Position numbers and translations under genes: made by a program. DNA of 64,000 bases from a virus: the IMG/VR virus record IMGVR_UViG_3300045988_073298; one strand, given 5' to 3'. The notes under the pieces were generated by a model. The model was not told where the DNA came from. It ran no database searches and saw only the letters and a list, made by a program, of their open reading frames with translations. Shown here one piece after another: positions 2,443-56,976 of this stretch; the stretch's first letter is position 1, and each line of letters opens with the position of its first letter.

Positions 2443-3929
2443 AAAAGTACTTCAATTTTAATTGGGTTTGGGGACGTAAGAAGGACCCTCCCAAAGATGG
2501 TACCTCCTCTAATAAAGAGCAAAAGCCTACCACTCCGATATCACCCGGTAGGGTTTCAGTTGACGATGATAGCGATAACTTAATCACATCATTACAGGGG
2601 TTGACTAAATTAGTCGAGCCCTCTTTTCGTGTTGATGTAATACCTTTAATCCGAGATTTATATAAAGTAAATCCGGATATGGGCATCGCATTACAAGATA
2701 TGTTTAAGTTAGCTAACACCAGTCATACAGTAACCTTTCCAAACAATACAGATGAAGAGGCTTCTAAGATGAGAGACCATCTTAAAAAGGCCACCAAGGG
2801 ATGGACCCGATATACTGCTGGTATAGATGGTTTAGTTAACAAAATGATTGTTCAACTTCTTGTAAGTGGAGCAATATCTGTAGAGGGAGTTCCCAATGAT
2901 AAACTAGATGGTTTGGCTACGGTATTATTCCTTAAACCTGAATACATCAAGTTTAAACGGGAATTAAATGGTGTGTATCACCCTTACCAAAAGAATCATA
3001 ATTACTGGAATAAGCAACAAGATTACATTAAGCTTAACCCAGAAACTTATTTCTATGTTGGTATGTTTAATGATACAGATGAACCTTATGGAGTCCCTCC
3101 ATTTATGCCTGCATTGGATTCTCTAAAAGGTCAAAATGATATGAAGATTAATTTCAAACATATCATGGAGATTTGCGGTATGGTTGGTTTTCTTGAAGCG
3201 AAAATGCAGAAATCACCACAAAGGTCTAACGAAAGTATAAATGCCTATGAATCTAGACTAAACCGAGAGCTTAATACTTTAAAACGTAATGTTAAGGATG
3301 GCATGAAGGATGGAGTTGTTGCAGGTTATATTGATGACCACGAATTTAAACTCAACTCTACTACTAAAGAGCTTGGTAATATCGAAAAGCCATGGAATAT
3401 GAATCAACAATCTGTGGCTAATGGTTTGGGAGTTAATGGCTCTATCATTGGAGTATCTGCTACTACTGGTGAAGGGGCAACGGGTATAATGCTGTCTAAG
3501 ATGATTAGCCAGTTAAAAAATATCCAAATGCTTGTAGCTTATGTATTAGATAGACTTTATTCTCTAGAACTGCGTCTGGCAGGCTTTAATAATAAGGGAA
3601 TGAAGATTGATTGGGGAACTTCTACAGTTTCTGATGAAGTTAAAATCCAACAGGGTCTTCAGTATAAGATACAGAACCTTGACTTACTGTATAAGGCTGG
3701 TATTATTAGCCAAGAACAGTATGCTTGGGCAATGGGCTATGATTCCCCGGATGAGAAAGAACCAAGAGTTTCATTGGAAGATCAATTTGCTAAAGGTGGT
3801 AATTCAGATCCTCAAGAGGGAACTAAAAAGAAACAAAGGCAGGATGATAAAAACCAATCTGCTCGTAGGTCAAGAGATAAGAATAACCCGGCTCCTTCTC
3901 GAGGAGACCAAAATACTAAACCAAGATGA
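2439..3929 (+). CDS. portal protein
   Basis: 496 aa, translationally coupled (ATGA overlaps) to terL upstream and to the protease/scaffold gene downstream. Size and position are canonical. The call rests on synteny, not on a motif. Confidence 0.7.
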   Translation: MKKYFNFNWVWGRKKDPPKDGTSSNKEQKPTTPISPGRVSVDDDSDNLITSLQGLTKLVEPSFRVDVIPLIRDLYKVNPDMGIALQDMFKLANTSHTVTFPNNTDEEASKMRDHLKKATKGWTRYTAGIDGLVNKMIVQLLVSGAISVEGVPNDKLDGLATVLFLKPEYIKFKRELNGVYHPYQKNHNYWNKQQDYIKLNPETYFYVGMFNDTDEPYGVPPFMPALDSLKGQNDMKINFKHIMEICGMVGFLEAKMQKSPQRSNESINAYESRLNRELNTLKRNVKDGMKDGVVAGYIDDHEFKLNSTTKELGNIEKPWNMNQQSVANGLGVNGSIIGVSATTGEGATGIMLSKMISQLKNIQMLVAYVLDRLYSLELRLAGFNNKGMKIDWGTSTVSDEVKIQQGLQYKIQNLDLLYKAGIISQEQYAWAMGYDSPDEKEPRVSLEDQFAKGGNSDPQEGTKKKQRQDDKNQSARRSRDKNNPAPSRGDQNTKPR

Positions 3930-5443
3930 GTAAATTTACAAAGAAAAACAAAGAGCATCTTGATTCTATGGTGATAGGTCAAGGCCATACCATTATGGCT
4001 GGTTATATACCAGAAGCAGTGGGAGCCCAGACTTTCTCAGAGAATTACTATAAATGGAAGAATCCTACACCGGACTCCATTGCTCAATTCGGATTTTGGG
4101 GAGGGGATATAGATTATAATACCTATTATCCTAACCTGGATAAATCGGAATTAACTCCTAAGGATGAAGAGTTCATTGAACCCATGTTCAGATTACTTTC
4201 GGAAACGATTGTATCTAAGAATTGGAATCCTACAGATTTTGGTCAAAATGGAGTATTGAAAGCTTCTATGAAAATGTTACTTGGTCAAACAGTAAACTGT
4301 GACCATGAAACTAACATAGGTAATGCTATCGGTGCTGTATCTCAGGTAATGTGGCAAGAGTCTTACAAAGATGGAAGCTTCACTATACCTGCAGGTATCA
4401 ACGGTATTCTGAAAATTGATGGTAAAGCCAATCCAAGGATTGCTAGAGGTATACTTATGGAACCACCATCAATTCACAGTAACTCGGTCACAGTACAATT
4501 CAAGTGGGATAAATCACATCCCCAAATGGAGGACAACGAATTCTATCAGAAACTCGGTACCTATGATTCTAAGGGAGTGATGGTACGTAGAATGGTTACT
4601 GAGATAGTTCGTTACCTGGAGACTTCATTGGTATCTCATGGAGCTGATTCTTTTGCTCAAAAAATCGGTTCTGATGGTAAGATTATTAATCCTACTTTTG
4701 CTAAAAGAACTTGGGCATCTTATGAAGAATATAGAGACGATAAATCGAAGCAATACTTCTTTACCGATTATAAATCTGACCTAACTTCTTATCAAGAAAA
4801 GGACGATACTCAAGGTTCTTTTAATGATAATGATGCCAAGGATAATCAATCAAACGAAAAAAATAGTATGAACGAATTAGAAAAATTTCTAGAGAGCCTC
4901 TTCGGGGATAATCTGCTTACCCTTGAGGAAGGTAAAGAAATGAATCAGGAAACAGTAGTTGCCTGTATTCAAAGTTTGGTATCATCCAGAAATGAACTGC
5001 AAACTTCAGTAGATAACCTTACTACAGAGAAGAATTCTCTTACGGAACAGGTTACTAACTTGAATGCAGAAGTGGCTAATCTGAAAGAGATGGCAACTGT
5101 AGGAAAGAATCACATTGCTTCTCTCCGTGAAGATGCAGTAGCAACTTACAAAAAATTGATGGGTGATAATGCTGATGAAACCATTGTTACAATGCTTAAT
5201 GCAGAAACAACTGGTATTACTACTCTTATTTCCTTGACTAAGGATTACCAAGCTCGCTTGGAAGAGAAGTTCCCTCTCACCTGCTCTAAGTGTGGTTCTA
5301 AGGATGTTAACCGTGCATCTTCAGTAACTGAAGATGATACTCAAGGTAAAGAAACTACCGACGGTACAAATACAACCAAGAATTCCGAATCACCGAGTAC
5401 TAAGAATGTGATCGATAATTTGTATCGAAACAAAATTAAATAA
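3926..5443 (+). CDS. putative prohead protease / scaffolding protein
   Basis: 505 aa between portal and capsid genes. The C-terminal third is coiled-coil-like ('ELQTSVDNLTTEKNSLTEQVTNLNAEVANLKE') and acidic/Ser-Thr rich, as in scaffolds. No catalytic residues were identified with confidence. Confidence 0.45.
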   Translation: MSKFTKKNKEHLDSMVIGQGHTIMAGYIPEAVGAQTFSENYYKWKNPTPDSIAQFGFWGGDIDYNTYYPNLDKSELTPKDEEFIEPMFRLLSETIVSKNWNPTDFGQNGVLKASMKMLLGQTVNCDHETNIGNAIGAVSQVMWQESYKDGSFTIPAGINGILKIDGKANPRIARGILMEPPSIHSNSVTVQFKWDKSHPQMEDNEFYQKLGTYDSKGVMVRRMVTEIVRYLETSLVSHGADSFAQKIGSDGKIINPTFAKRTWASYEEYRDDKSKQYFFTDYKSDLTSYQEKDDTQGSFNDNDAKDNQSNEKNSMNELEKFLESLFGDNLLTLEEGKEMNQETVVACIQSLVSSRNELQTSVDNLTTEKNSLTEQVTNLNAEVANLKEMATVGKNHIASLREDAVATYKKLMGDNADETIVTMLNAETTGITTLISLTKDYQARLEEKFPLTCSKCGSKDVNRASSVTEDDTQGKETTDGTNTTKNSESPSTKNVIDNLYRNKIK

Positions 5444-5466
5444 GTTATTATATAAATATCCGCATT

Positions 5467-5937
5467 ATGGAAACAACGAAAATCGTAAACGATCCTCAGC
5501 AACTTACTCTCTTTGGGGAAAGAACTCCGAGAGCAGTGATTTACAAGAGTGAATCCCACAAATTGCATCAGGCTTTCAATGTTAAAGCTGGAGAGAAAAT
5601 TGTACAAGGTATGCCGGTAGCTTTAAATGAAGATGGTTTGATCTACCCTTGTACTGATCCGTCTACTCAAGTTTACTTGGGTGTGGCAGTAACGGATAAC
5701 GTTAACCCGGCTTATCAGCCTCAAAGAAACTTCCCAGTAGAAGTAACCGTGGCTGTAGAAGGTTATATGATTTGTAACTGGGTATCAAACGGAACTATCG
5801 AAGCTGGCTATGTAACTCCCGATGGGGCATTGCTTAACGACCGTTTCGTTAAGGCTAACCAAGGTATTTCAACTCCGTTCATTGCCCTTAATCCTGCAGA
5901 AGAGGCAAATGAGGTAATCCAAGTACTCATTAAATAA
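5467..5937 (+). CDS. putative head decoration/cement protein (DUF2190-like pattern)
   Basis: 156 aa immediately upstream of the capsid gene. The pattern 'AGEKIVQGMPVAL...GVAVTDNV...VEVTVAVEGYMI...IEAGYVTP' resembles small beta-rich decoration proteins. Judged by eye only. Confidence 0.45.
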   Translation: METTKIVNDPQQLTLFGERTPRAVIYKSESHKLHQAFNVKAGEKIVQGMPVALNEDGLIYPCTDPSTQVYLGVAVTDNVNPAYQPQRNFPVEVTVAVEGYMICNWVSNGTIEAGYVTPDGALLNDRFVKANQGISTPFIALNPAEEANEVIQVLIK

Positions 5938-5951
5938 GAGAAAAGAAAGTT

Positions 5952-7073
5952 ATGGAAAATAAGATTGATATTACAAAAATGAAGGCTCAGGACTTTATGA
6001 ATGAGCTGCCGGAAATGGTAAGAAGCTTGGAAGCTGTTCGTTCCGGTTCACAGGATAAGAAGCCTGTAGAAGTAACCTTTGAAGAATTGGTTACAGGTAA
6101 ATGGGGGATTTCACAGGATGAACTCTTCGAAAAGATGGGCATCAATCCAAAAGTTGATACCATGCAGAACATCTTTACTATGCCTCAGCAGAATATCCGT
6201 TGGATTGTTCCGGAAATTATCCGTGCTGCTATCACTCTGGGTATGCGACAGGCACCATTCTATCCGAACATCATCGCATCTGACCAATCAATCAATGGTT
6301 TGCAAGCGATCATGCCGATGGTTAATATGTCTGATGCTGCTCCTGCAAAGGTTAACGAAGCAGAAACTATCCCCTTGGGTGATGTTAGCTTCGGACAGAA
6401 ATCAGTTAGCCTCTTCAAAATCGGAAAAGGTTTCAAACTTACTGATGAAGTTCGTAACTATGTTTCGCTTGATGTCTTGGGAATCTATCTTCGTGACTTC
6501 GGTGTTCAGTTGGGTTATGCTCTGGATACTCTGGCTATGGACGTGGCTATTAATGGTAACAACCCTGATGGTTCTGAGTCAGCCCCAGTAATTGGTGTAT
6601 ACGAAACAACCAATGGCATTACTTATAAAGATCTGTTGCATATCTGGGTACGTGCTGCTCGTATGGGACGTAACTTTACTACTATGATTGGTGGTGAAGA
6701 CCAGGCAATTGAAATGCTGAATTTACCCGAATTCAAAGACCGTCACTCTGGTACAACAGAAGCTACACTGAATGTGAAGTCTCCGGTTCCCAAGAATGCT
6801 GACTTCTATATTCACCCGGGAACACCTGACCAACAGCTGTTGTTGATTGATACATCTGCTGCCTTGATTAAGCTTACCGCTCGTCAATTGATGTTGGAAT
6901 CTGAAAGAATCGTTTCTAACCAAACCGAGGCTGTTTATGCAAGCTTAACTACTGGCTTCTCCAAGATGTACCAAGATGCTGCTCTGTTGCTGGCTGCAGA
7001 TAAGAAGTTCTCCGAATTCGGATTCCCAGAATTCATGAACGTAGATCCTTACCTGATGGTTAATCTTGAATAA
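5952..7073 (+). CDS. major capsid protein
   Basis: 373 aa in the canonical position after scaffold/decoration genes. It is followed by a hairpin terminator (7104-7140), typical of highly expressed capsid genes. Confidence 0.75.
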   Translation: MENKIDITKMKAQDFMNELPEMVRSLEAVRSGSQDKKPVEVTFEELVTGKWGISQDELFEKMGINPKVDTMQNIFTMPQQNIRWIVPEIIRAAITLGMRQAPFYPNIIASDQSINGLQAIMPMVNMSDAAPAKVNEAETIPLGDVSFGQKSVSLFKIGKGFKLTDEVRNYVSLDVLGIYLRDFGVQLGYALDTLAMDVAINGNNPDGSESAPVIGVYETTNGITYKDLLHIWVRAARMGRNFTTMIGGEDQAIEMLNLPEFKDRHSGTTEATLNVKSPVPKNADFYIHPGTPDQQLLLIDTSAALIKLTARQLMLESERIVSNQTEAVYASLTTGFSKMYQDAALLLAADKKFSEFGFPEFMNVDPYLMVNLE

Positions 7074-7103
7074 GAACGTCCGGTTTCATCTATATAAATT
7101 CCC

Positions 7104-7140
7104 AGAGAGGGTGGGTAACTAAAAAACCCATCCCCTCTTT
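7104..7140 (+). terminator. hairpin terminator after the capsid gene
   Basis: AGAGAGGGTGGGT-aactaaaaa-ACCCATCCCCTCTTT. GC-rich stem with one bulge, followed by T residues, 30 nt after the stop codon. Confidence 0.6.
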
Positions 7141-7169
7141 AATCATTTTTTATTTTAATCTTAGGAAAT

Positions 7170-7571
7170 ATGGCTAAAGATAAATATATATTAACTGTGG
7201 GACCAAGAGCTTACAGTTTTCATGACCAATCAACTGGTATTACCATTTGTAGAGGAGAAGAAAAAGAACTCACTCGTCGTCAATTCCGTACACCGAAAAT
7301 TCAGAAGGCTGTTGCTTCGGGTCATCTGATTATTATTGCCGATAAATCGGAAATCGAAAAGTATTCAGAGGCTGATATCGAAAAGTTGGACAAGAGGTTA
7401 AATGCCCAGTTTAAAAAAGGCATGACTTTGGAAAAGCTTTCAAAGGGATATTCTCTTGAAGAACTGAAGCTGGTAGCTGGTTTACATGAAATCGTTGCCG
7501 AGAAAGATGATACAGTAGAAACACTTCTCCAGGCTTTGCTGGAAGAATTTGAATCTTCTTCTAAAGGTTAA
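7170..7571 (+). CDS. hypothetical protein (head module)
   Basis: 133-aa ORF with the same strand and packing as its neighbours. No motif recognised. Confidence 0.55.
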   Translation: MAKDKYILTVGPRAYSFHDQSTGITICRGEEKELTRRQFRTPKIQKAVASGHLIIIADKSEIEKYSEADIEKLDKRLNAQFKKGMTLEKLSKGYSLEELKLVAGLHEIVAEKDDTVETLLQALLEEFESSSKG

Positions 7572-7598
7572 TATGAAAATTACATAAGACAGACTAAT

Positions 7599-8495
7599 AT
7601 GAAAAATAATCTGGACTTTTTGTACGTTACGTCAGGTCTGGAAGTTTCATTCAGAGTCATATCCAAAGTCCCGGCCAAATCTATTTTTGACTGGGACTTT
7701 GGCGATGATAAGGGAGAGGTTTTCAATGGTGGAAGACATGTTTCCTATTCTTATGAAGCTCCCGGTTTCTATACAGTAACCCTACATGTAACTAACTCGA
7801 ATGGTTTAGATATCACCGTAGATAAGACTCTGGTAGTTTGTGATTATGGGCATACGGCATTAGCCGATACAATATATAATTTAATTGACCATTATATACC
7901 ATCAGAAATCTCCGATGGTATGACACGAGAGGATAAATCCATCTACATCACCAAGTGGCAATATTATATTGGACCTCTAGTAAATCATACAATTCCACTA
8001 GATAAATATACTGACGAATTATGGTATGAAGCACTAGAAAACCAATTAATAATGGAATTGGCAGCATGGGATTTTCTTAATGTGAAGATACTTAACTTAT
8101 TAACGAGTACTTCTGAATATTTAAGTCAATTAACTTCTACCAAAGAACAAACCGGTGATGGTACCTCTAAACCTGAACTTGCCCGGGGTGATAGAATTAA
8201 ACAAATCACTACTGGGCCTACTGAAGTGCAATATTATGATACCCTGGCAGATGCTACAAGTTCCCTATGGAAAACACTCTCTCAAGCAATGCAACCTGGT
8301 GGATTAATAGATGAATTAAGAAAGAACCTTTGTATGTTAGCTTCACGGTTGGAAATCTACTTACCGTTCTGCGATGAAGTATTCAGAACTGTAACACCCA
8401 GAGTAGTTAACAGAAGAAAACCTGGTGTATTGGATGGACCAAACCCAAGTGCACCAGTGAAAGGTGGTAATGATTCAATTTTAACTAAGTTATGA
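7599..8495 (+). CDS. PKD-domain-containing virion protein (possible head-tail adaptor)
   Basis: The N-terminal 'FDWDFGDDKGEVFNGGRHVSYSYEAPGFYTVTLHVTNSNGL' matches the classic PKD signature (WDFGDG...H.Y...G.Y.V.L.V.N). The helical C-terminal half sits in the connector region of the module. Confidence 0.65.
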   Translation: MKNNLDFLYVTSGLEVSFRVISKVPAKSIFDWDFGDDKGEVFNGGRHVSYSYEAPGFYTVTLHVTNSNGLDITVDKTLVVCDYGHTALADTIYNLIDHYIPSEISDGMTREDKSIYITKWQYYIGPLVNHTIPLDKYTDELWYEALENQLIMELAAWDFLNVKILNLLTSTSEYLSQLTSTKEQTGDGTSKPELARGDRIKQITTGPTEVQYYDTLADATSSLWKTLSQAMQPGGLIDELRKNLCMLASRLEIYLPFCDEVFRTVTPRVVNRRKPGVLDGPNPSAPVKGGNDSILTKL

Positions 8496-8968
8496 CAAAA
8501 GAGCCCTGGAGAATGGTAAAGAACCGCTCTTGGGATAGATACAAGAAAATTATCACTGATTTCTTAGATTGGGATGCTGGTAGACAAACCATAACTTGGG
8601 CTAAAAATGTTAACCAACTCCTCAGTCATGCCGAAGATAGTATACCCAAATATTATAACATCCAAATCGAAGCATTATGTTATTACAATGCTTTCAGAAA
8701 CTGGCCAATCAATAAGGCTACTATAACTGGTGAATTGGATGATGAAAACTTATCAATACTAATTTCTAAATCTTATATAGAACAAATCGGTTATCTTACA
8801 CCGGAAGGCTATTGGGATTTTAATTGGGAACAAGATAGGTTTGTAATTAATGGTATAACGTATAAACCTTCTGGTGATACTCAAACTGCTCAGGCAAAGG
8901 ATGAGGCTCTAGTTTTCATGGTTATCCTAAAGAGAGACCGAGATACCAAAATTGAATTTGTAGAATAA
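8492..8968 (+). CDS. hypothetical head-tail joining region protein
   Basis: 158 aa, ATGA-coupled to the upstream gene. Called from position only. Confidence 0.5.
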   Translation: MTKEPWRMVKNRSWDRYKKIITDFLDWDAGRQTITWAKNVNQLLSHAEDSIPKYYNIQIEALCYYNAFRNWPINKATITGELDDENLSILISKSYIEQIGYLTPEGYWDFNWEQDRFVINGITYKPSGDTQTAQAKDEALVFMVILKRDRDTKIEFVE

Positions 8969-37463: not shown

Positions 37464-38117
37464 TTAATATTTGAGTTCTTCCTTAGCCCTATCTTCCCAA
37501 TATTGTATATCTTGCCTGAGTTCTGAGATATACCTCATGGAATCATTAGTCTTAGGCATTTCGAAAAACTCTATTAGCATTATATTAGTAATTCGAGTGC
37601 TATTCCCAAGTTTCTCTTTAATGAAGGGTGGAGGAGTGATTAATACTTCGAAAAGTAAATAAGCATCGGAAGAAAGATTAGCCTTCATATATTTATACAT
37701 CATATCAATCATTTCTGATTTGGCCTTTTCTTCTTCGCTATCATCTTCTAATTCCTTATCATTGTCAAATAAATCATCAAGCTTAAAAAGACTTTGATTA
37801 TACTCGGCTTGTTCTCCATAAGCAGAACGAAGTAATTTATTCTTGAATGTACTAAGAGATGCAAGGATTCTTGCTTTAAGATGTTCTTCAGTACACTCAC
37901 CATAGTATTTGTTAAAAACAAATAACATCTTATCCCAGAAATATGATTGAATAATATCCGGTGTAAGGTTAAACCGTTTATAATCAATCTGACGGGTAAG
38001 ATTCTTGATTACCGGCTTACAGACTTTATAAAGTCTGTTAAATGTAGCTTCATCATAATCCTTCATAGGTTTTAATCTGTGAAGCTCAGAGCCATTATTT
38101 CCTTTACTTTTTCCCAT
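37464..38117 (-). CDS. putative phage sigma-70-family factor
   Basis: 217 aa and the only convincing minus-strand gene. 'EATFNRLYKVCKPVIKNLTRQI...DIIQSYFWDKMLFVFNKY' resembles sigma region 2. After an acidic linker, the C-terminal 'LSSDAYLLFEVL...ITNIMLIEFFEM' resembles a region-4 HTH. Judged by eye. Confidence 0.45.
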   Translation of the reverse strand: MGKSKGNNGSELHRLKPMKDYDEATFNRLYKVCKPVIKNLTRQIDYKRFNLTPDIIQSYFWDKMLFVFNKYYGECTEEHLKARILASLSTFKNKLLRSAYGEQAEYNQSLFKLDDLFDNDKELEDDSEEEKAKSEMIDMMYKYMKANLSSDAYLLFEVLITPPPFIKEKLGNSTRITNIMLIEFFEMPKTNDSMRYISELRQDIQYWEDRAKEELKY

Positions 38118-42628: not shown

Positions 42629-43216
42629 ATGAAAGGTTTACAATTTTTAGGGAACAGAGTAGAGGATGCAGCTAATGCTTTTATTGACGTCCTCAAGTAT
42701 TCAGACCAGTCAGTAGATTATCCGGATTTTAAGGATATTGAACCTTGGCCTGATGAGATAGTTAATATGTTTTATGTAATTTGGAAGAACGCCAAATTCT
42801 CAGAACTAAGTGCAATCATTATGTATACTCAGCAGTCAACTAGATTTAAAGAGATTTCGGAATTGATGTTGGGTATTGGATTAGTAGAAATGAGACATTT
42901 TGATAAGATATCAGATTTCATACAATTGGCAGACCCTTATGAAGATTACTCTGTAATCAACATTAATCCTACAATTGAAATAGGTTCTACTTGGGAACAA
43001 GCTTTGAAGATTGCCTGGGATTCCGAAATAGAAACTATCGGACACTATAAAAAGATTCAAAAAGCAATTGCTCAATACAATGAACGCCCAGATTATGATG
43101 ATGTGAATTATTTCCTTGAGAAATTGATTGCCGATGAAGAACATCACATTAAACTTCTTAAGGAAGCTTTGGGAGTAGATAAAGGTACTAAGGGAGTAAC
43201 CGTAATCATTAAGTAA
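42629..43216 (+). CDS. ferritin-like di-metal protein (CotJC / Mn-catalase-like pattern)
   Basis: 195 aa. 'SELSAIIMYTQQS', 'GLVEMRHFDKI' (ExxH), 'DSEIETIGHY' and 'ADEEHHIKLL' (ExxH) give the four-helix di-metal carboxylate signature. Confidence 0.55.
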   Translation: MKGLQFLGNRVEDAANAFIDVLKYSDQSVDYPDFKDIEPWPDEIVNMFYVIWKNAKFSELSAIIMYTQQSTRFKEISELMLGIGLVEMRHFDKISDFIQLADPYEDYSVININPTIEIGSTWEQALKIAWDSEIETIGHYKKIQKAIAQYNERPDYDDVNYFLEKLIADEEHHIKLLKEALGVDKGTKGVTVIIK

Positions 43217-45853: not shown

Positions 45854-46046
45854 TATGATATGGGCTATGTTCAAGGTATACCTTAACAACCCAAATTATT
45901 TTGTAAAGCAAGGAGACGTACTTGCTAATCTGTGTATGGAAGGTTCTACCGATGTAATTAGAATATGCAATTCATTGGGAGTAAGGGTTTCCAGACCAGA
46001 GAGATTAACCTTTGGACAACTATTAAACAAGTGTAATATATTATGA
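45840..46046 (+). CDS. hypothetical small protein
   Basis: The start is moved to the ATG at 45840 ('MQKIDMIWAMF'). 68 aa, ATGA-coupled to the dUTPase gene. Confidence 0.4.
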   Translation: MQKIDMIWAMFKVYLNNPNYFVKQGDVLANLCMEGSTDVIRICNSLGVRVSRPERLTFGQLLNKCNIL

Positions 46047-46582
46047 ACAGATTTAGATTTATCAAAGTACGGGAGGTAATATCTCCCAACAGAGCAAACC
46101 CAAATGATGCTGGGTTAGATTTTTATGTACCAACTGATTTATACCCAGAGCATATTCATTCTAAAAATGAATTCGACTCCGAAGGTTATGATTTAGATGT
46201 TCCTTTTGGTGAAGTATTTGTAAGACATATAGCTTTAAAACCTGGGCATCGTATACTTATCCCCTCCGGTATCATGGGATTGCTTGAACCCCCCTCATCA
46301 ATGTTAATGGCAGCTAATAAGTCAGGAATTGCTACTAAGCAAGGTCTGATATTTACTGCAGAGATAGTAGATTCCCCCTATGTGGGAGAGATACACATCG
46401 GAGTATATAACACCTCTCAAGAAGTACAAATAATTGAATGTGGTAAGAAGTTAGTACAATTCATACACGTTCCCATTTATATTACGGAACCCAAGGAGAT
46501 TCAACAAGAGGAGTTCTATTCAGAATCTCAAATGTGGGGGAGTAGAGGTAGTAATGGATTTGGTTCATCTCAAAATAGATAG
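46043..46582 (+). CDS. dut: trimeric dUTPase-fold dNTP pyrophosphatase (dUTPase, possibly dCTPase/dUTPase)
   Basis: The five dUTPase motifs are recognisable: 'AGLDFYVP', 'IPSGI', 'ANKSGIATKQGL', 'IVDSPYVGEIHIGVYN', 'RGSNGFGSS'. Confidence 0.85.
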   Translation: MNRFRFIKVREVISPNRANPNDAGLDFYVPTDLYPEHIHSKNEFDSEGYDLDVPFGEVFVRHIALKPGHRILIPSGIMGLLEPPSSMLMAANKSGIATKQGLIFTAEIVDSPYVGEIHIGVYNTSQEVQIIECGKKLVQFIHVPIYITEPKEIQQEEFYSESQMWGSRGSNGFGSSQNR

Positions 46583-46585
46583 GCT

Positions 46586-47422
46586 GTGGATATAAGAAAC
46601 ATACGAAAAGAGGTACCCAATGTAGAAAGCAATAAGATACTTTCAAAAATGTACGAATTGGGATTAGAACAATTGAATGGGTATAGGCAAATAGAATCAT
46701 TACCAGAATACCCATTGGATATCAATAACCCAAAAAGCCAAGTTATACTCAAGGATTTTATTGGTAGGGTAATCGAAGAATTAACTGAAGGCTTTGAATC
46801 TACCGATGAGGTATTCGAACTTTGTCAAAAGAAAGGCTGGAATATTGAGATGTTCAATGAAGATGAATGCCAATCTATATTGAATTCCCTTGCTAATGCC
46901 AATGAAGAACAAGCAGATGCTTTAGGCTTTTTCTTTACTCTTCTAGTATATTCAAATATACTTCCTGAAGATATTCTTAGCTATAATAAAGCAAGGAACT
47001 TATTTGAAGTGATGGCTACCGGTGTTAAAGAGCTGGTAATAAAATATCCAGATTATCAGAATTTATTGAAATTTGATATCATTTGTGAAGAGGATTTCTT
47101 TGATGAAGAGGGTAAATGGGAACAGATAATTTCCTATACTCCGGGTTTTCATCAGATGAACGAATTATCACATGAGGCTGAGAAGTTATACTTATGGGAG
47201 GTAATATATGAACTCAATAAAGCAAGGAATTTTCTTAAGTGTAGACCATGGAAACAAACTCAAGTAATGACTAAAGAGATAGATTTCCAAGAATCTTTGG
47301 TAAAGTCATTTTACTTATATATGGGATTCCTTGCATTAAACGGATTTACCGATAAAGGATTGTTTAGTTTATTCTTTAAAAAACAAAGTCTCAATTTATG
47401 GAGACAGACCAGCAATTATTAG
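46586..47422 (+). CDS. all-alpha NTP pyrophosphohydrolase-like protein (dimeric dUTPase/dCTPase / MazG superfamily)
   Basis: 278 aa with a GTG start. Acidic metal-binding helices 'VIEELTEGFES' and 'NANEEQADALGFF', and 'KCRPWKQ', resemble the dimeric dUTPase (dUTPase_2) motifs. Confidence 0.5.
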   Translation: MDIRNIRKEVPNVESNKILSKMYELGLEQLNGYRQIESLPEYPLDINNPKSQVILKDFIGRVIEELTEGFESTDEVFELCQKKGWNIEMFNEDECQSILNSLANANEEQADALGFFFTLLVYSNILPEDILSYNKARNLFEVMATGVKELVIKYPDYQNLLKFDIICEEDFFDEEGKWEQIISYTPGFHQMNELSHEAEKLYLWEVIYELNKARNFLKCRPWKQTQVMTKEIDFQESLVKSFYLYMGFLALNGFTDKGLFSLFFKKQSLNLWRQTSNY

Positions 47423-47460
47423 TTACTATATTCTCTCCGTGTCTACTATAAAGAAGAATT

Positions 47461-47562
47461 ATGAGATTAAGAAAAATGAATAAATCACAAGCTTATATAG
47501 CAAGTAGAGTAAAATTACATCAGACTGCTATAAGTAAATTTTTGAAAGGAGACTTAGGGTGA
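47461..47562 (+). CDS. 33-codon mini-ORF with HTH-like sequence
   Basis: 'MRLRKMNKSQAYIASRVKLHQTAISKFLKGDLG' resembles helices 2-3 of Xre/Cro HTH domains. Its stop overlaps (GTGA) the GTG start of the next gene. It is too short for a full domain. Confidence 0.3.
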   Translation: MRLRKMNKSQAYIASRVKLHQTAISKFLKGDLG

Positions 47563-48479
47563 GTGGGTGGAATAAAAAATTAGAGGGACTTCAACTCAAT
47601 ACGGAGGAGTCCCTCCATTCGTTAGAATTTGCTACTTCACAAGAAGCATGGGAAAAACTCAATGAGGGTTTCCTAAGATTAGACCCAATCCTATTTGGGA
47701 AAGGGGCTATTGCTAATAGTGGGGTAGCAGTAGTGTATAATGTATTTATAAAAATACGTAAAGCATGGGTAGACCCAGAATTTGATTATGGGAGATGTTT
47801 CAATTACAAAGAAACTAAGTGGACTAGCTTATTGAATAACTACATAGATTTTAATAAGCTTGACTTGTTGCGTAGTAAACTGAGAGTACTAAGGAATAAG
47901 TACAATCAGAATTACAATATAACCTATATGTTTAACAATCATCATGATAATGGTAAACAATGTCTAATAGCTGCTACATTCTCAAAACGATTTGGGGAAG
48001 ATATACCTGTTATTACAATGGTAATCAGGGCATCCGAAATAACAAAAAGGTTAATCTTCGACTTCTTACTAATACAACGAATGGCGGAATATGTGTACGG
48101 ACCAGAACAATCAGTACAAATCAATTTATTTGCTACTCAAATGTATGGGAATGTAGAGACCCTCTTGATGTATCATACCCATAAACCCTTAAAGAAAGTA
48201 TTAAAAGGGGCAGAAGAAAATTCCTGGAATAAGAGGGTGAAGGAAATATGGAAGAAATTCCAAAAGGGTACCGAGAAAGAATTCTCTTCATTCAAGGTAT
48301 TTTTTAGAAGTTTTAAAGTACTCAGACCTGATTTATATGAGGAAACATATAAATCAATGAAAGCAAAGGAATTACTCCTTGAGTATGAGGATATAGAATA
48401 CCCAGAGAACGTAATTTCTTACTCTCAACGGAAAGCTTATAAAAAGAAACTTTTAAAACAAAAGAACAATGGAAGCTAA
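47559..48479 (+). CDS. divergent thymidylate-synthase-fold paralogue
   Basis: 306 aa. 'GKQCLIAATF...VIRASEITKRLIFDFLLIQRMAEYV...FATQMYGN' aligns with the same spacing to 'IPCSMYYDF...YHQRSSDFVTHFGNDVYLAWRLMEYV...IDSLHSY' of 48678-49433. It retains the Cys, the Arg and the Asp but lacks an obvious Arg-Arg/Arg-Lys phosphate loop. Confidence 0.5.
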   Translation: MSGWNKKLEGLQLNTEESLHSLEFATSQEAWEKLNEGFLRLDPILFGKGAIANSGVAVVYNVFIKIRKAWVDPEFDYGRCFNYKETKWTSLLNNYIDFNKLDLLRSKLRVLRNKYNQNYNITYMFNNHHDNGKQCLIAATFSKRFGEDIPVITMVIRASEITKRLIFDFLLIQRMAEYVYGPEQSVQINLFATQMYGNVETLLMYHTHKPLKKVLKGAEENSWNKRVKEIWKKFQKGTEKEFSSFKVFFRSFKVLRPDLYEETYKSMKAKELLLEYEDIEYPENVISYSQRKAYKKKLLKQKNNGS

Positions 48480-48663
48480 GGAGTTTTTAAATCAGAAGCG
48501 TATAGGATTGGTAAACAGATTCTATTACCAAATTTTAGGGATTAAAAAGAAAGGTGCAGAACCAGATATACCCTTGTTAATGAAAGAGGTAGAGGATTTT
48601 GATGATTTTGTATCTCGCTACTGGAATATGACCTGGGATAATTTTACAATGTCGTACAATTAA
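48469..48663 (+). CDS. hypothetical small protein
   Basis: 64 aa, overlapping the upstream stop by 11 nt. Confidence 0.4.
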   Translation: MEAKEFLNQKRIGLVNRFYYQILGIKKKGAEPDIPLLMKEVEDFDDFVSRYWNMTWDNFTMSYN

Positions 48664-48677
48664 ATATTTATATTATC

Positions 48678-49433
48678 GTGAGGATTTATAGTAATTCTTT
48701 TGAGTTAATGTCGGAGATGGGCAGAGAACTCAACAGTTATGGTCAATTGGTAAAACCAAAGACCTATCAGAATAAAGTAATTGAAGGTAAGGAGGAGTTT
48801 GAAACAAAAGAACTCATTTGCCAACAATATTGCTTAACCTCATTGGGAGACCCAGTATGGTTGTTTGTATTCTCCCATTCAAAGGAATGGGCAGATGCAG
48901 AGTTTAAAGAGAGGATTGGTTGGTATGAATTAAACCCAGGTAAAGCTTGGGAACTAAGAAAAGATTTATGGGAACAGTTTTTGGTAAAGGGTAGATTTGA
49001 TTATACCTATCCAGAACGTATTTGGAGTCAACTTAGTCCCTTCAATAGTGATATGGCTTTACAAGCAGTTATTGAATTACTCAAAAGAGATAATGATACT
49101 CGTAAGGCAGTACTCCCTATATTTCATGGTACAGACTTAAGATTCCTTGATGGGAGTAAACGTATCCCCTGTTCTATGTATTACGATTTTCTTATCCGTC
49201 AGAATGGTAAAGGAGAGAAGGTATTACATATCTGCTATCATCAAAGAAGTTCTGACTTTGTTACCCACTTTGGTAATGATGTATACCTTGCATGGAGACT
49301 TATGGAATACGTAGCTCAAGAAGTTGGTATTAAACCAGGTTACTTATACCATACCATTGATTCTCTTCATTCTTATAAGAAAGATTGGTTAGCATTAGCA
49401 TCTAATCTGGAAGACTTACAAGAGAAATACTAA
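48678..49433 (+). CDS. thymidylate-synthase-family enzyme, dCMP hydroxymethylase/methylase-like
   Basis: 251 aa with a GTG start. 'AEFKERIGWYEL', 'DTRKAVLPIF', catalytic 'IPCSMYYDFLIR', 'YHQRSSDFVTHFGNDVYLAW', 'IDSLHSY'. The spacing matches T4 gp42 as I recall it, with Asp rather than Asn at the base-specificity position. Confidence 0.7.
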   Translation: MRIYSNSFELMSEMGRELNSYGQLVKPKTYQNKVIEGKEEFETKELICQQYCLTSLGDPVWLFVFSHSKEWADAEFKERIGWYELNPGKAWELRKDLWEQFLVKGRFDYTYPERIWSQLSPFNSDMALQAVIELLKRDNDTRKAVLPIFHGTDLRFLDGSKRIPCSMYYDFLIRQNGKGEKVLHICYHQRSSDFVTHFGNDVYLAWRLMEYVAQEVGIKPGYLYHTIDSLHSYKKDWLALASNLEDLQEKY

Positions 49434-49438
49434 TAATG

Positions 49439-49477
49439 AGGGATGTATCTACTACGGGTGGGTATGTCCCTTTTTCT
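49439..49477 (+). terminator. rho-independent terminator
   Basis: AGGGATGTATC-11 nt-GGTATGTCCCT (11 pairs including 3 G-U) followed by TTTTTCTATTTT, 6 nt after the stop. Confidence 0.6.
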
Positions 49478-49487
49478 ATTTTAAAAT

Positions 49488-51818
49488 ATGGAGACACGGT
49501 ATACAATAATAAAAAACAAGAGAGAGCTTAAAAAACTTATTGCTTGTTGTAAAGCTACAGGTTATGCTTGCTGTGATTATGAATCAAATGCAGAACCAAT
49601 TTATAATAAAAGTTTTAAGCCAACTATACTCTCGGTATCTTGGATGCCAGGATTTGGTGCTTCTATTCCCTTAGACCATTTCCAAACAAAAGAATACACT
49701 TCACCTGGATGGAACTGGAAGAAGATGTTAAGGAAATTTGGGGAAGAAGTAATTGAGAATTATGATATTGTAAAGGTTGCATGGAACTGGAAATTTGATG
49801 ATCAGATTAACCAGAAGTATAATATCTATTATCGAGGTACATGCTTAGATGGGATGCTTGCCAAATATGTTCTCAATGAGGAAAAACCACATGATTTAAA
49901 GTCAATGGTAAGAAGGTATCTACCCGAACATGGAGACTATGAAAAGCAAGATGCTTTTGATAAAATACCATGGGATAAAAAAGAATTAGACCCATTATGT
50001 CACTACGGATGTCAAGATACAGATTATACTCTTCGGTTAATGCTATTCTTCGAAAAGAAATTGATGGACTTGGGTATGTATTCAGTATTCCGTAATTTAT
50101 TTATGTGTAATTCACGAGTACTCACATCAGTAGAGAAGGAGGGATTATATCTAGATACTGAGTTCAATAAAAAGCTTTTGGAAGAATATAAACCAAAAAT
50201 AGATGCTGCTAGACAAGCCATATATGACTTGCCAAGAGTAAAGAAGTTTACCGAGAAATATAATCAAGGTAAAATTGAAAGATATATAGAATCTATTGAG
50301 GCTGAACTAGAAGAATTAGATTATAATGACCCAAAAGATAAACGCAAGATTGATTCAAGGGAACAGAAAATATCGAATATTCGTGCAGGAGTATTTACTA
50401 CTAAGAAAGAACAGGACCTTATAAGACCCATTAACCTGGGTAGTACGAAGGATTTACCTGAACTTATGTATTCCGAAAGGGGTTTTAAATTCCCAATTAT
50501 CAAATATACTGTAGATAGTAAAACTGGTAAACAAACCGATAGACCAAGTACTGATGAAGAAACTCTCATTAACTTAAGATTAACGGTTAAAAATCAAGAT
50601 TCACCTAAGGCAGTATTTCTTGATAAACTTCTTGAATTAAGAGGTTTACAGAAAATGTATACTACATATATAGAAGGTTGGCATGAAAAAGTTCAGGATG
50701 ATTCTCGATTACATGGTAGATATAATATACATGGTACTGACTCTAATCGGTTTAGTTCTGCAGACCCAAATATGCAGCAGATACCTAAGACATCAGTAGA
50801 TCCAAATATTAAGAAACAATTAGTAGCTCCCAAAGGTTATCTATATATGGCTTTTGACTATTCCCAAGCAGAGTTAAGAATGATGGCTCACCTATCCGGC
50901 GATGAAACCTATTTGGAAGCTTTTGCTAAGGGAGTAGATCCACATCTTGGTATAGCAGCAGCAAAATATGGGGTATCAATTGAAGAGGCAAGTAAAGCTT
51001 ACGAAGATGAAAGTCATCCAGATCATAAACTTTGGAAGATGAGGAGAAAGCAAGCTAAACAAATTGCATTTGGACTTATTTATGGTATTGGAGACGCTTT
51101 ACTAGCAGTAAAATTATCCGACCCAAAAGCTGGTATTATAGTTACTAAAGAAGAAGCCCATAAAGAAATGGATGAGTTCTTTAAGAAACATCCAAAGATA
51201 CTTAAGTTTAAAGAGAAACAAGAGAAATTTTTACGTAAGCATGGGTATTATACCCAATTATTTGGTACTAAACGAAGACTCCCACAGATATATTCAAATG
51301 ATAAGCAAGAAGTTGCTTATGCCATTCGTTTAGGTCTTAACTTCCCATGTCAAGGTGCTGCAGCAAATATGACTAATTTTGGAGCTATCCTTGTTTATTG
51401 GTTAATGAGACAAGGTAAATTACCAATGATGAAAGAGGCTTGTACAGTACATGATGCTGTATATATGTATTCTAAACCTCAAGATATTAACACATGGACT
51501 GTATATACAATCTGGAATATCCTACGTAACCCAAGTACAAAAAGATATTTCGGATTTCAAGTTGATGATGTAACTTTATCAATGGATTTTACTATTGGTA
51601 GGTCAATGGCAGAGGAATTACCTTTTATGCCAGGTTACGATTATACTAAAATGTTACAACCAGATTTTTCAGTAGATGAGTATATGGAAGAATACCATAA
51701 GCTTAAGACTCATAAAATTGGAAATTTTAGTGCTGCTTCGCCTGAGGTATTTATGGAACTCTATAAAAAGGAAATCCATAAATATCAACAAGAATATGAA
51801 AAATCGAGAAAAAGGTAA
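49488..51818 (+). CDS. family A DNA polymerase with 3'-5' exonuclease domain
   Basis: Exo 'CCDYESNAE'. 'TDSNRFSSADPNMQQIPK'. Motif A 'FDYSQAELRMMAH', motif B 'RRKQAKQIAFGLIYG', motif C 'CTVHDAV'. Confidence 0.95.
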   Translation: METRYTIIKNKRELKKLIACCKATGYACCDYESNAEPIYNKSFKPTILSVSWMPGFGASIPLDHFQTKEYTSPGWNWKKMLRKFGEEVIENYDIVKVAWNWKFDDQINQKYNIYYRGTCLDGMLAKYVLNEEKPHDLKSMVRRYLPEHGDYEKQDAFDKIPWDKKELDPLCHYGCQDTDYTLRLMLFFEKKLMDLGMYSVFRNLFMCNSRVLTSVEKEGLYLDTEFNKKLLEEYKPKIDAARQAIYDLPRVKKFTEKYNQGKIERYIESIEAELEELDYNDPKDKRKIDSREQKISNIRAGVFTTKKEQDLIRPINLGSTKDLPELMYSERGFKFPIIKYTVDSKTGKQTDRPSTDEETLINLRLTVKNQDSPKAVFLDKLLELRGLQKMYTTYIEGWHEKVQDDSRLHGRYNIHGTDSNRFSSADPNMQQIPKTSVDPNIKKQLVAPKGYLYMAFDYSQAELRMMAHLSGDETYLEAFAKGVDPHLGIAAAKYGVSIEEASKAYEDESHPDHKLWKMRRKQAKQIAFGLIYGIGDALLAVKLSDPKAGIIVTKEEAHKEMDEFFKKHPKILKFKEKQEKFLRKHGYYTQLFGTKRRLPQIYSNDKQEVAYAIRLGLNFPCQGAAANMTNFGAILVYWLMRQGKLPMMKEACTVHDAVYMYSKPQDINTWTVYTIWNILRNPSTKRYFGFQVDDVTLSMDFTIGRSMAEELPFMPGYDYTKMLQPDFSVDEYMEEYHKLKTHKIGNFSAASPEVFMELYKKEIHKYQQEYEKSRKR

Positions 51819-55531: not shown

Positions 55532-56396
55532 GAAAACAATATTATTGATTGATGGGGAAAATATTCTACACCAATCTTTCCACAAGTTCGAAAAACTTAA
55601 ATCTACGGATGGAAAACCAAGTGGGGCAATATTCGGATTTTTTAAATCACTACATATGTACCTTACAAGGTTTGAACCGGATGATATTTATATATCATTT
55701 GATAATGGTCATTCTCCAGTAAGGATGGAGTTACTGCCTAACTATAAGGAGCATAGGAAAAATATCTCAGTAGATTATGAATCATTGCAAAAGCAAAAGG
55801 CAATCATAATGAAAATGCTGGGTATGCTAAGAATTAATTATATATTCGATAAAAAGAAATCCACAGTATATGAGGGAGATGATTTCTTAGCATACCTTGC
55901 AATTAAAAAATTCCAATCTGAAAAAATGATATTAATATCATCAGACAAGGATTTTAATCAGTTATTATCAAACAACTTAAGGATATATAATCCAAGAAAG
56001 GATGAAATGATAAGGATGGATAATTGTAAAGAGTTATTCGGATATCATTCTCATGAGACGGTAGAATATCTTGCAATGGTTGGAGATACTTCTGATGATA
56101 TACCTGGGTTTCCAGGTATTGGGCCAGTAAAGGCAAGGAAAATCCTTGATGAGGGTAGGATTGAAAAATTCATTGCTCACAGTAAAAATAAAGAATATCT
56201 TCAGATATGGAAAAGGAATGAGCAATTGATTGACCTTTTTTGGTTTGTAAGACATAATCCTTTAAAGGAATTACCTGTAAAATCAAAAAGACAGTTCAAA
56301 TATGAGAAATTCAAGAAAGTATGTATCGAATACTCTTTAGCATCTTTCTTGACAAATGAATTTATAAAACCATTTAAAGAATTACATCATGAGTAA
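55524..56396 (+). CDS. 5'-3' exonuclease / flap endonuclease (RNase H-like)
   Basis: The start is moved to the ATG at 55524 ('MSKKTILLIDGENILHQSFH'). 'ISSDKDFNQLL'. H3TH 'MVGDTSDDIPGFPGIGPVKARKIL'. Confidence 0.9.
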   Translation: MSKKTILLIDGENILHQSFHKFEKLKSTDGKPSGAIFGFFKSLHMYLTRFEPDDIYISFDNGHSPVRMELLPNYKEHRKNISVDYESLQKQKAIIMKMLGMLRINYIFDKKKSTVYEGDDFLAYLAIKKFQSEKMILISSDKDFNQLLSNNLRIYNPRKDEMIRMDNCKELFGYHSHETVEYLAMVGDTSDDIPGFPGIGPVKARKILDEGRIEKFIAHSKNKEYLQIWKRNEQLIDLFWFVRHNPLKELPVKSKRQFKYEKFKKVCIEYSLASFLTNEFIKPFKELHHE

Positions 56397-56976
56397 AAGA
56401 ATAATGTTTGTAGGTCCTTCTGGTATAGGGAAAACTACTTTAGCACAATACGTGGCTAAATCACAAAATATCCCTTTCATATCAGGTAGTATGTCAGATT
56501 TATTGCCCGCTACTAAGGATATATCACATAATGAAATACTCTCTTTGGGTTCAGAGGCAATGTATAAATCAGATTTTCAACTTCTGAATTTGAGGAACAA
56601 ATTATTTAAGGATAGAGAATACTTTGTAACTGATAGGAGTTATGCAGACTTGGCTGCTTACTTCTGGTATAAGCAATCAAGAAGTATTCCAGAGTGTGAA
56701 ATGGAACACTTCCTATGTCAGTGTAAAACATTAATGGAAGAACAATGTGACTTGGCAATCTTCTTACCTTTGAATTTGTATACTTACCAGAACTGGCAAA
56801 TGGAAAACAATGGTAAGAGAATACTAAACAGATTTTTTCAAGTTCAGATATCCTCACTCATGAGTGAATTACTTGCAAATTGGGAAATATCTACTGCTTG
56901 TATATCAGAACTTGATTTAGAGATGAGAATAAAACAAATAGATTACCATCTTGATAGGATATGGGGAAAGAAGTAA
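56389..56976 (+). CDS. P-loop (deoxy)nucleotide kinase-like protein
   Basis: 'FVGPSGIGKTTLAQ' Walker A. 'VTDRSYADLAAYF' resembles the DRS motif of deoxynucleoside/nucleotide kinases. Confidence 0.5.
   Translation: MSKRIMFVGPSGIGKTTLAQYVAKSQNIPFISGSMSDLLPATKDISHNEILSLGSEAMYKSDFQLLNLRNKLFKDREYFVTDRSYADLAAYFWYKQSRSIPECEMEHFLCQCKTLMEEQCDLAIFLPLNLYTYQNWQMENNGKRILNRFFQVQISSLMSELLANWEISTACISELDLEMRIKQIDYHLDRIWGKK

Follow-up and report, generated by a model that had tools for sequence, protein, structure and literature searches.

A block of four genes in a 64,000-nt stretch of viral DNA (IMG/VR record IMGVR_UViG_3300045988_073298; the whole stretch is called the window below) is, on balance, probably a T4-type pre-replicative cassette for the modification of cytosine at C5, located directly upstream of the phage DNA polymerase gene. 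Like the 5-hydroxymethylcytosine pathway of phage T4 (gp56, gp42 and gp1), the window encodes a pyrophosphatase of Pfam family PF08761, a thymidylate synthase (TS)-family enzyme with the Cys, the Arg-Ser-x-Asp motif and an Asp at position 177, and a small P-loop kinase, all inside the replication module. Residue positions 143, 147, 169 and 177 are given in the numbering of E. coli ThyA. The window differs from T4 by an additional trimeric dUTPase and one additional TS-fold paralogue of the ORF3 type (two in relatives), by the gut anaerobes that serve as hosts, and in that no glucosyltransferase was found in the scanned open reading frames (ORFs) of the window. While this parts list is itself familiar, an undescribed branch of the TS superfamily (ORF3) and a subtype of TS homologue with Arg at position 143 (ORF5), which falls outside the published rules, are new.

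An earlier interpretation made from the letters of this DNA (the sequence-only reading) had proposed such a pathway from two pyrophosphatases and two TS-fold proteins. The four ORFs are indeed found on the + strand where that reading had located them. They are listed here together with the polymerase and kinase genes.

46043..46582, + strand: trimeric (all-beta) dUTPase, 179 amino acids (aa); PF00692, phrog_135, PDB matches, five motifs
46586..47422, + strand: all-alpha dimeric nucleoside triphosphate (NTP) pyrophosphatase of the dUTPase_2 family, 278 aa, candidate dCTPase; PF08761, phrog_12184, homology to Clo-PEP-1 gp3
47559..48479, + strand: ORF3, divergent TS-fold protein, 306 aa, with Cys135, Arg157, Glu160 and Asp168; AlphaFold2 (AF2) model, Foldseek, hhalign
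48678..49433, + strand: ORF5, TS-family enzyme, 251 aa, predicted deoxycytidine monophosphate (dCMP) C5-modifying enzyme; PF00303, PDB matches, alignment
49488..51818, + strand: family A DNA polymerase (PolA), directly 3' of the cassette; orthologues with PF00476 and PF01612, tblastn
56389..56976, + strand: P-loop kinase with a TMP-kinase/deoxynucleoside-kinase fold, 195 aa, candidate deoxynucleoside monophosphate (dNMP) kinase; AAA_28, phrog_2107, AF2/Foldseek

ORF5, a TS homologue with a cytosine-type Asp

ORF5 matches PF00303 with an E-value of 2e-13 (50.6 bits, cut-off 24.3 bits) and is the only TS-like tblastn match within the window. Its closest solved relatives by sequence in the PDB are the AfhB-type structures 9iqu and 9iqc (1.7e-8), followed by MilA (1e-5). 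The nearest solved relatives are thus cytosine enzymes and not ordinary ThyA.

ORF5 was aligned by MAFFT with E. coli ThyA (a copy verified against the PDB) and T4 gp42 (from NC_000866). Cys165 corresponds to the ThyA nucleophile position C146, Tyr111 to Y94, Arg142 of the DTRK motif to R126, Gln-Arg190-Ser191 to Q165-R166-S167, Asp193 to D169, and His231/Tyr233 to H207/Y209. Asp201 occupies the column of ThyA N177 and gp42 Asp179. The alignment therefore bears out the Asp, rather than Asn, that the sequence-only reading had placed at the base-specificity position. Two further columns differ from ThyA, with Arg162 at the position of L143 and Ser166 at that of H147. Arg143, Ser147 and the QRSSD...GND motif are shared by all 120 of the 120 database homologues of ORF5 (76-89% identity), and the motifs PC, DTRK, QRSSD...GND and SLHxY are found in essentially all of them.

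The N177D exchange, known to decide between uracil and cytosine preference, shifts the TS substrate from deoxyuridine monophosphate (dUMP) to dCMP (PMC8670742; PMC13326640). In metaviromes, Asp177 combined with a residue other than His at position 147 marks contigs carrying modified cytosine (PMC8670742).

ORF5 lacks what defines a canonical ThyA: the Asn at 177, a hydrophobic residue at 143, the C-terminal segment, and an equivalog-level score. The protein ends about 18 residues past the HxY motif, compared with 55 in E. coli ThyA, so that the C-terminal segment of TS is absent. The best score among the NCBIfam thymidylate-synthase equivalogs is 46.2 against a cut-off of 174.55 bits, and ORF5 stays far below every such cut-off. 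Of the marks of a T4-type dCMP hydroxymethylase, it has Asp177 but not the Asp or Glu at 143, which is Arg in 120/120 homologues. With T4 gp42 itself, which has Asp at this position, ORF5 shares about 24% identity. ORF5 belongs to the TS family, retains all catalytic residues alongside the cytosine-type Asp, and is predicted to act on C5 of dCMP.

Predicted product of ORF5

The product made by a dCMP-specific TS homologue depends on further positions. Lee et al. 2026 (PMC13326640) showed that RB69 gp48 and DLP3 gp80 synthesise 5-hydroxy-dCMP in a reaction that depends on flavin and O2. According to the same work, N177D indicates dCMP as the substrate, a hydrophobic residue at 143 is associated with methyl products and Asp or Glu at 143 with hydroxymethyl or hydroxy products, and D169N is diagnostic for 5-hydroxy-dCMP synthases. 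ORF5 follows the first of these rules. Its residue 169 is still Asp, meaning that the hydroxylase signature is absent, and Arg143 falls outside the second rule. As Arg143 is neither hydrophobic nor Asp/Glu, the product of ORF5 cannot be read from the known rules. On the side of known enzymes, this comparison covers E. coli ThyA, T4 gp42 and a Mosigvirus gp48-type sequence.

The structures 9iqu and 9iqc are titled "phage HY126 dCMP hydroxylase AfhB" in the PDB, and by tblastn and gene context they correspond to the RB69ORF048c-type proteins of Mosigvirus. Beyond PMC13326640, nothing further on AfhB or HY126 was found in the literature. AfhB and ORF5 are alike in Asp177 and in a compact TS fold that lacks the C-terminal tail; AfhB is the nearest solved relative of ORF5 and also a top structural match of ORF3. 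It differs by D169N, Glu143 and its use of flavin and O2, whereas ORF5 has D169 and Arg143 and ORF3 has Glu at 169. The Mosigvirus gp48-type sequence accordingly has Asn in the column of ORF5 Asp193.

Among the possible products of ORF5, 5-hydroxymethyl-dCMP appears the most likely and the methyl derivative the next, with the hydroxy derivative unlikely. The hydroxymethyl group is ranked first because residue 143 is charged, the TS C-terminal tail is absent, and the nearest relatives do not methylate. In TS, the terminal residue of this segment is needed for the reductive hydride-transfer step, as seen in L. casei TS mutants. An O2-dependent reaction would be unlikely in phages of strict anaerobes. 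The sequence-only reading had expected a C5-substituted dCMP, with methyl, hydroxymethyl or a further group as the substituent; the T4-like enzyme set supports a substituted dCMP of this kind.

ORF3, a divergent branch of the TS superfamily

ORF3 belongs to a separate, previously undescribed branch of the TS superfamily that is invisible to Pfam. A homologue search gave 140 cluster representatives, and 62 full-length members with 19-57% identity were aligned. None of these 62 has a Pfam match. ORF3 itself has no NCBIfam match and no PDB sequence match by phmmer, and hmmsearch with the family profile against the PDB returned only 9iqc, at E = 1.2. In BLASTP, ORF3 and ORF5 reach only E = 0.03. 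The sequence-only reading had described them as mutually alignable paralogues with Asp at the specificity position. Alignability is weak at the sequence level and the two are only remotely related, but both have the TS fold and both have the Asp.

The TS fold of ORF3 is confirmed by structure prediction alone. The AF2 model built from the 62-member alignment has a pLDDT of 91.9, and its active-site strand and helix order are those of TS. At E <= 0.001, Foldseek against the PDB returned the TS superfamily exclusively, including MilA (6.8e-6), AfhB (1.3e-4) and the T4 dCMP hydroxymethylase (6e-4), with moderate TM-scores of 0.37-0.52; the structural check proposed by the sequence-only reading thus came out in its favour. 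Against BFVD at the same threshold, ORF3 matched its own family and a protein of phage PMBT14, followed by entries of which most are annotated as TS or dCMP hydroxymethylase, some are unnamed and a few are other proteins. The best structural match, MilA (5b6d, 5jnh), is also the second-best sequence match of ORF5. This CMP 5-hydroxymethylase is likewise cytosine-specific with Asp177. It differs in using a ribonucleotide substrate, in its role in antibiotic biosynthesis and in its Asp143, and its TM-score to ORF3 is about 0.37.

In hhalign comparisons with a TS alignment (probability 13-44%), Cys135 of ORF3 falls on the catalytic Cys, Arg157 on R166, Glu160 on D169, and Asp168 on the N177 position. 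Cys135, Arg157 and Asp168, together with Tyr83, Lys87 and Tyr95, are present in 62/62 members, and Glu160 in 61/62. That the Cys/Arg/Glu/Asp set stays invariant in 62 sequences as distant as about 20% identity argues for catalysis rather than for a decayed copy. Other parts of the TS active site are absent. The Arg-Arg pair of the DSRR motif is not conserved in the family, with a Lys near the equivalent loop (position 117) in 30/62 members; the position of His207 is variable, and that of Tyr209 is aromatic (Y/F/W) in 60/62. DSRR is the phosphate clamp that TS takes from its dimer partner. The way in which ORF3 holds the sugar-phosphate must therefore differ from that of TS. Going by its model, ORF3 is probably a divergent, catalytic TS-fold enzyme with a cytosine-type pocket.

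The uncharacterised protein A0A2I6PI74 of Pseudomonas phage PMBT14, found in BFVD, has a TM-score of 0.59-0.68 to ORF3 at 14% identity. In structure it stands between classical TS homologues and the ORF3 family, and it may represent another unrecognised TS-fold branch.

The pyrophosphatases and the kinase

The protein encoded at 46586-47422 contains the strings IEELTEGFE, NEEQADALGF and RPWKQ, from which the sequence-only reading had taken it for an all-alpha NTP pyrophosphatase. Database matches and homologues support this identification. The protein scores 21.5 bits with PF08761 (dUTPase_2), slightly below the cut-off of 22.9 bits, and its E-value with phrog_12184, "nucleotide pyrophosphohydrolase", is 4.8e-18. 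In two related loci (L001 and L091), the orthologues exceed the Pfam cut-off with 25.1 and 29.2 bits. It is also homologous along its full length (E 3e-13) to gp3 of the Clostridium perfringens phage Clo-PEP-1, which matches PF08761 at 1.2e-11 (45.6 bits). T4 gp56 reaches 25.4 bits with the same family; BLASTP detects no similarity between gp56 and the window protein, and the link between them is the shared Pfam family. By sequence the protein is placed in the gp56 (dUTPase_2) family, and by analogy it is a candidate dCTPase that would correspond functionally to T4 gp56, the substrate being taken from the family.

The trimeric dUTPase with five motifs that had been read from the sequence at 46043-46582 is well supported. 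The protein matches PF00692 (E 1.1e-14; 54.8 bits, cut-off 22 bits) and phrog_135 dUTPase (7e-21), and its top PDB relatives are all dUTPases, with E. coli Dut at 2.4e-10. In a BLASTP alignment with E. coli Dut, motifs 1-5 are covered by SEGYDL, NKSG, IVDSPYVGE, KLVQF and RGSNGFGSS. With 65.6 bits, the protein lies under the NCBIfam equivalog cut-off of 102.55 bits and is therefore a divergent dUTPase. Two motif-1-like segments are present, DAGLDFYVP (residues 22-30) and SEGYDLDVP (residues 46-54); BLASTP aligned motif 1 of Dut to the second, and the sequence-only reading had taken the first. In motif 2 (NKSG), Lys replaces the usual Arg.

The P-loop kinase candidate at 56389-56976, already pointed out in the sequence-only reading, matches AAA_28 (1.9e-6) and phrog_2107, "thymidylate kinase" (1.9e-8), with the sequence matches confined to the P-loop. 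Its AF2 model (pLDDT 90.1) has TMP kinases and deoxynucleoside kinases as top Foldseek matches, with TM-scores of 0.65-0.72. On the strength of this predicted fold, it is a reasonable candidate for the step performed by a gp1-like dNMP kinase.

Conservation of the cassette

All 85 of the 85 related loci carry the genes for the dUTPase, the all-alpha enzyme, ORF3 and ORF5, arranged in this order. A search of IMG/VR with a 15-sequence ORF3 alignment returned only loci whose ORF3 is 97-99% identical to that of the window. PolA is reached in 81 loci, in all of which ORF5 lies upstream of it, separated at most by an HNH or IspD/LicD insertion. Among the more distant ORF3 members, two are on contigs of just 1.3-1.4 kb, P0370 has no IMG/VR relative, and P0305 gave one informative locus, L091.

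About 50,000 deposited phage records contain the ORF3 family in 13 cases, namely 3 uncultured gut phages and 10 C. perfringens phages of the Clo-PEP-1 group, and the same 13 records are exactly those that hold the closest ORF5-type genes. In Clo-PEP-1, genes for a kinase, the all-alpha enzyme, an ORF3-like and an ORF5-like protein lie side by side; gp1-gp4 are annotated as thymidylate synthase, hypothetical protein, dUTPase and thymidylate kinase. Gp1 is 40% identical to ORF5 and has Arg143 and Asp177, gp2 is an ORF3-family member (hhalign 99.3%), and gp3 is the homologue of the all-alpha enzyme. Clo-PEP-1 differs in that the trimeric dUTPase is not in the block, and it represents a different phage lineage with a Gram-positive host. 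The gp4 kinase and the window kinase are unrelated in sequence. Since the module is common to gut phages and the Clo-PEP-1 group, the all-alpha pyrophosphatase, the ORF3-type and the ORF5-type protein form an evolutionary unit across unrelated phages of anaerobes. A literature search found nothing on DNA modification in C. perfringens phages, and we know of no functional data for the Clo-PEP-1 cassette.

Two more distant relatives have three TS-fold genes in a row. In MT121964.1 (L001), two tandem ORF3-family paralogues (3929-4918 and 4911-5696) precede the ORF5-type TS gene, and the IMG/VR contig L091 has the same arrangement (7031-8044 and 8001-8798). The extra copies match the family with an hhalign probability of 100%, and the longer ones keep the Cys, the Arg, the acidic residue and the Asp.

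A proposed pathway

In the T4-type pathway favoured here, the all-alpha enzyme would convert dCTP, and perhaps dUTP, to the monophosphate, as expected for a member of the gp56 family, thereby draining dCTP and supplying dCMP. The trimeric dUTPase, whose family is clear, would keep dUTP from the DNA. Cys165 of ORF5 would attack C6 of dCMP, with Asp201 selecting cytosine, and a one-carbon group from methylene-tetrahydrofolate would be put on C5; to judge from the residues, 5-hydroxymethyl-dCMP would be the likeliest product. The kinase, together with the host NDP kinase, would raise this product to the triphosphate, which PolA would incorporate. The part of ORF3 is more speculative. As its invariant Cys, Arg, Glu and Asp indicate, it may likewise form a covalent adduct with the cytosine ring, and either perform a second C5 chemistry or act jointly with ORF5. 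A partner role is suggested by the fact that ORF3 always adjoins an ORF5-type gene and is without the DSRR phosphate clamp.

Some relatives may take the modification further. In MT121964 (L001), the ORF5-type gene and PolA are 2.1 kb apart, and this interval holds two genes that are absent from the window:

MT121964.1, 7083-7838: IspD-family cytidylyltransferase; PF01128, 1.4e-26
MT121964.1, 7831-8703: LicD-family phosphotransferase; PF04991, 8e-39

In TarI/LicC-LicD-type pairs, an alcohol phosphate is activated as a CDP derivative and moved to a hydroxyl acceptor. As an IspD/LicD pair transfers a phospho-alcohol to a hydroxyl, and adjoins the TS gene here, it fits a hydroxyl-bearing base. The ispD/licD insertion has been read as a manipulation of isoprenoids or teichoic acid by Benler et al. 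(PMC8008677), and no link between LicD/IspD and DNA hypermodification was found in the literature. Its position after a predicted hydroxymethylase suggests, as a hypothesis, a phospho-alcohol hypermodification of DNA instead of a cell-wall or isoprenoid role. A more far-reaching proposal, possible but rather doubtful, is that the ORF3 family and the Arg143-type ORF5 make a cytosine derivative undescribed in DNA, to which some members add a phospho-alcohol via IspD/LicD. Under this same doubtful proposal, ribitol-, glycerol- and choline-phosphate would be the candidate groups, and the result would be a class of DNA hypermodification without known precedent.

Restriction sites and alternative explanations

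Several observations weigh against the T4-type pathway. C-containing restriction sites are strongly avoided in the window: GATC occurs 44 times, with about 207-234 expected; GCGC and CGCG occur once each, with about 65 each expected from the base composition; and ATGCAT occurs 0 times, with 9-21 expected. MT121964, which carries the same cassette, has a gene for a C5 cytosine DNA methylase (L092, 4682-5677; PF00145, 6e-18). Such an enzyme argues against full substitution because fully C5-substituted DNA offers it no substrate. Arg at 143 fits neither published rule, so the call of the ORF5 product draws on indirect arguments. ORF3, lacking DSRR and His207, may not bind a free dNMP in the manner of TS. 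Both the kinase substrate and the preference of the all-alpha enzyme for dCTP are deduced, and the modification of the virion DNA is itself a prediction from the genes.

Palindromes made of A and T only are close to expectation in the window. The CpG odds ratio is 0.52, and GCG and CGC are 4-8-fold rarer than the other CG-containing trinucleotides. No homologue of the C5 methylase of MT121964 was found in the window. GATC is much less avoided in MT121964 (111, with 137-172 expected), and because of this weaker avoidance the pressure on GATC is taken as lineage-specific; it is probably driven by restriction. Site avoidance and the C5 methylase together argue against a complete, broadly protective replacement of cytosine without contradicting the enzymology. 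Compatible with them would be a small substituent, a replacement of only part of the cytosines, or a role that goes beyond anti-restriction. Of the T4-like dCMP pathway put forward in the sequence-only reading, the gp56-family enzyme, the Asp177 TS homologue and the TMP-kinase fold stand.

Alternatively, ORF5 could be a dCMP methyltransferase of the XP12 type, giving DNA with 5-methylcytosine instead of or alongside cytosine. Asp177 is equally compatible with this unlikely explanation, as the E. coli ThyA N177D mutant makes 5-methyl-dCMP (PMC8670742), and D169 is retained. 5-Methylcytosine could, moreover, reconcile the modification with the avoidance of GATC. MboI/DpnII-type cleavage of GATC is not blocked by this base. 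The charged Arg143 in place of the bulky hydrophobic residue tied to methyl products, and the absent C-terminal segment, speak for a different reaction. It is very improbable that ORF5 is instead a flavin-dependent 5-hydroxy-dCMP synthase like RB69 gp48 and AfhB, which would yield DNA with 5-hydroxycytosine, possibly derivatised. This was considered because 9iqu/9iqc are the best solved matches of ORF5 (1.7e-8), and because ORF5 and AfhB are both short, with Asp177 and a non-hydrophobic residue 143. It was rejected on D169 and the anaerobic hosts: the diagnostic D169N is missing, with Asp193 in 120/120 homologues; residue 143 is Arg and not Glu; and the reaction needs O2 (PMC13326640), whereas the hosts are anaerobes (Bacteroides/Parabacteroides according to PMC8008677, and C. 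perfringens).

The cassette might also do nothing but manage nucleotide pools, with canonical virion DNA and a non-catalytic or regulatory ORF3. It could then supply dTMP for an AT-rich genome, sanitise dUTP, or counter host defences that deplete dNTPs. This explanation, taken as a whole with its variants, is rather improbable. It would account for the persisting avoidance of restriction sites and for the C5 DNA methylase of a relative, and it agrees with the ready assembly of these phages from ordinary shotgun metagenomes (PMC8008677) and with the plain label of thymidylate synthase that databases give to ORF5 homologues. Against it, both TS-fold families have an invariant Asp177, contrary to the requirement of dUMP methylation; ORF5 reaches at best 46 bits with a thymidylate-synthase equivalog (cut-off 174 bits); and the invariant Cys/Arg/Glu/Asp set of ORF3 favours catalysis.

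The phage and its genomic setting

Nearly all genes of the window are on the + strand, and the GC content is about 0.36. The first 38 kb code for a capsid protein, a BACON-domain protein, tail sheath, tape measure and baseplate J. The replication module follows the structural genes and includes a DnaB-type helicase, a Toprim primase, an SF2 helicase and PolA, as well as orthologues of gp32, RecA, a 5'-3' exonuclease, Mre11 and SbcC. Homologues of the studied genes are found on 84-88 kb contigs from human gut metagenomes. IMG/VR contains 532 confirmed stretches with an ORF3 relative, and there are clusters with thousands of member sequences.

Phages of Bacteroides/Parabacteroides make up the candidate family "Flandersviridae" (Benler et al. 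2021, PMC8008677); their genomes have a median length of 85.2 kb and encode a contractile tail, BACON domains and DnaB/DnaG/PolA. The window fits this published description in its capsid, sheath, baseplate and BACON proteins and in its DnaB, Toprim primase and PolA, and comes from a putative member of the family. The ispD/licD insertion within the replication module of some members is a further likeness. Thymidylate synthase, dUTPase and hydroxymethylation do not appear in PMC8008677, and the literature search found no link between Flandersviridae and a modification pathway. A scan of about 45 ORFs, not the full set of the window, against Pfam or PHROGs found no glycosyltransferase.

Two smaller features accompany the cassette:

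48469..48663, + strand: conserved 64-aa ORF between ORF3 and ORF5; tblastn
49438..49482, + strand: intrinsic-terminator-like hairpin and T-run; stem prediction

The 64-aa ORF was detected by tblastn in 75/85 related loci, with 76-86% identity in the rows listed, and is missing where both TS-fold genes overlap directly. It has no match in Pfam or PHROG. The hairpin and T-run with which the sequence-only reading closed the block are present: the stem at 49438-49472 has 16 pairs and a loop of 3, and is followed by the tail TTTCTATTTT.

The closest cultured relatives of PolA (about 27-29% identity) are the SPO1-like, SP-10 and SP8 Bacillus phages, in addition to sequences in Salmonella records; several of these Bacillus phages have hydroxymethyluracil-type DNA. 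An HNH endonuclease gene lies between the TS gene and PolA in about 25 relatives, and the PolA match falls into two or three pieces in MT121964 and MT121960. A ferritin/rubrerythrin-like protein (42629-43216; PF00210 5e-7, PF02915 2e-5) is encoded in the replication module and kept in the relatives L005 and L006; genes for iron sequestration and oxidative stress have been reported in gut phages (Benler et al., PMC8008677). The sole sizeable minus-strand ORF of the window (37464-38117, 217 aa) is located at the junction of the structural and replication modules. It has no match in Pfam or PHROG, and it is conserved at this position in L005.

Implications

The phages of this group are among those most often assembled from human gut metagenomes. 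If the predicted modification is real, it would bear on the evasion of Bacteroides restriction and CRISPR systems, as well as on recovery in library preparation, long-read basecalling and estimates of abundance in the gut virome. The published rules for positions 143, 169 and 177 predict the product of neither ORF3 nor ORF5. The ORF3 family, which has an intact nucleophile and the cytosine-type residue and is always accompanied by an Arg143-type TS homologue, offers a target for enzyme discovery. For the ispD/licD insertion, an interpretation other than isoprenoid or teichoic-acid metabolism is suggested as well.

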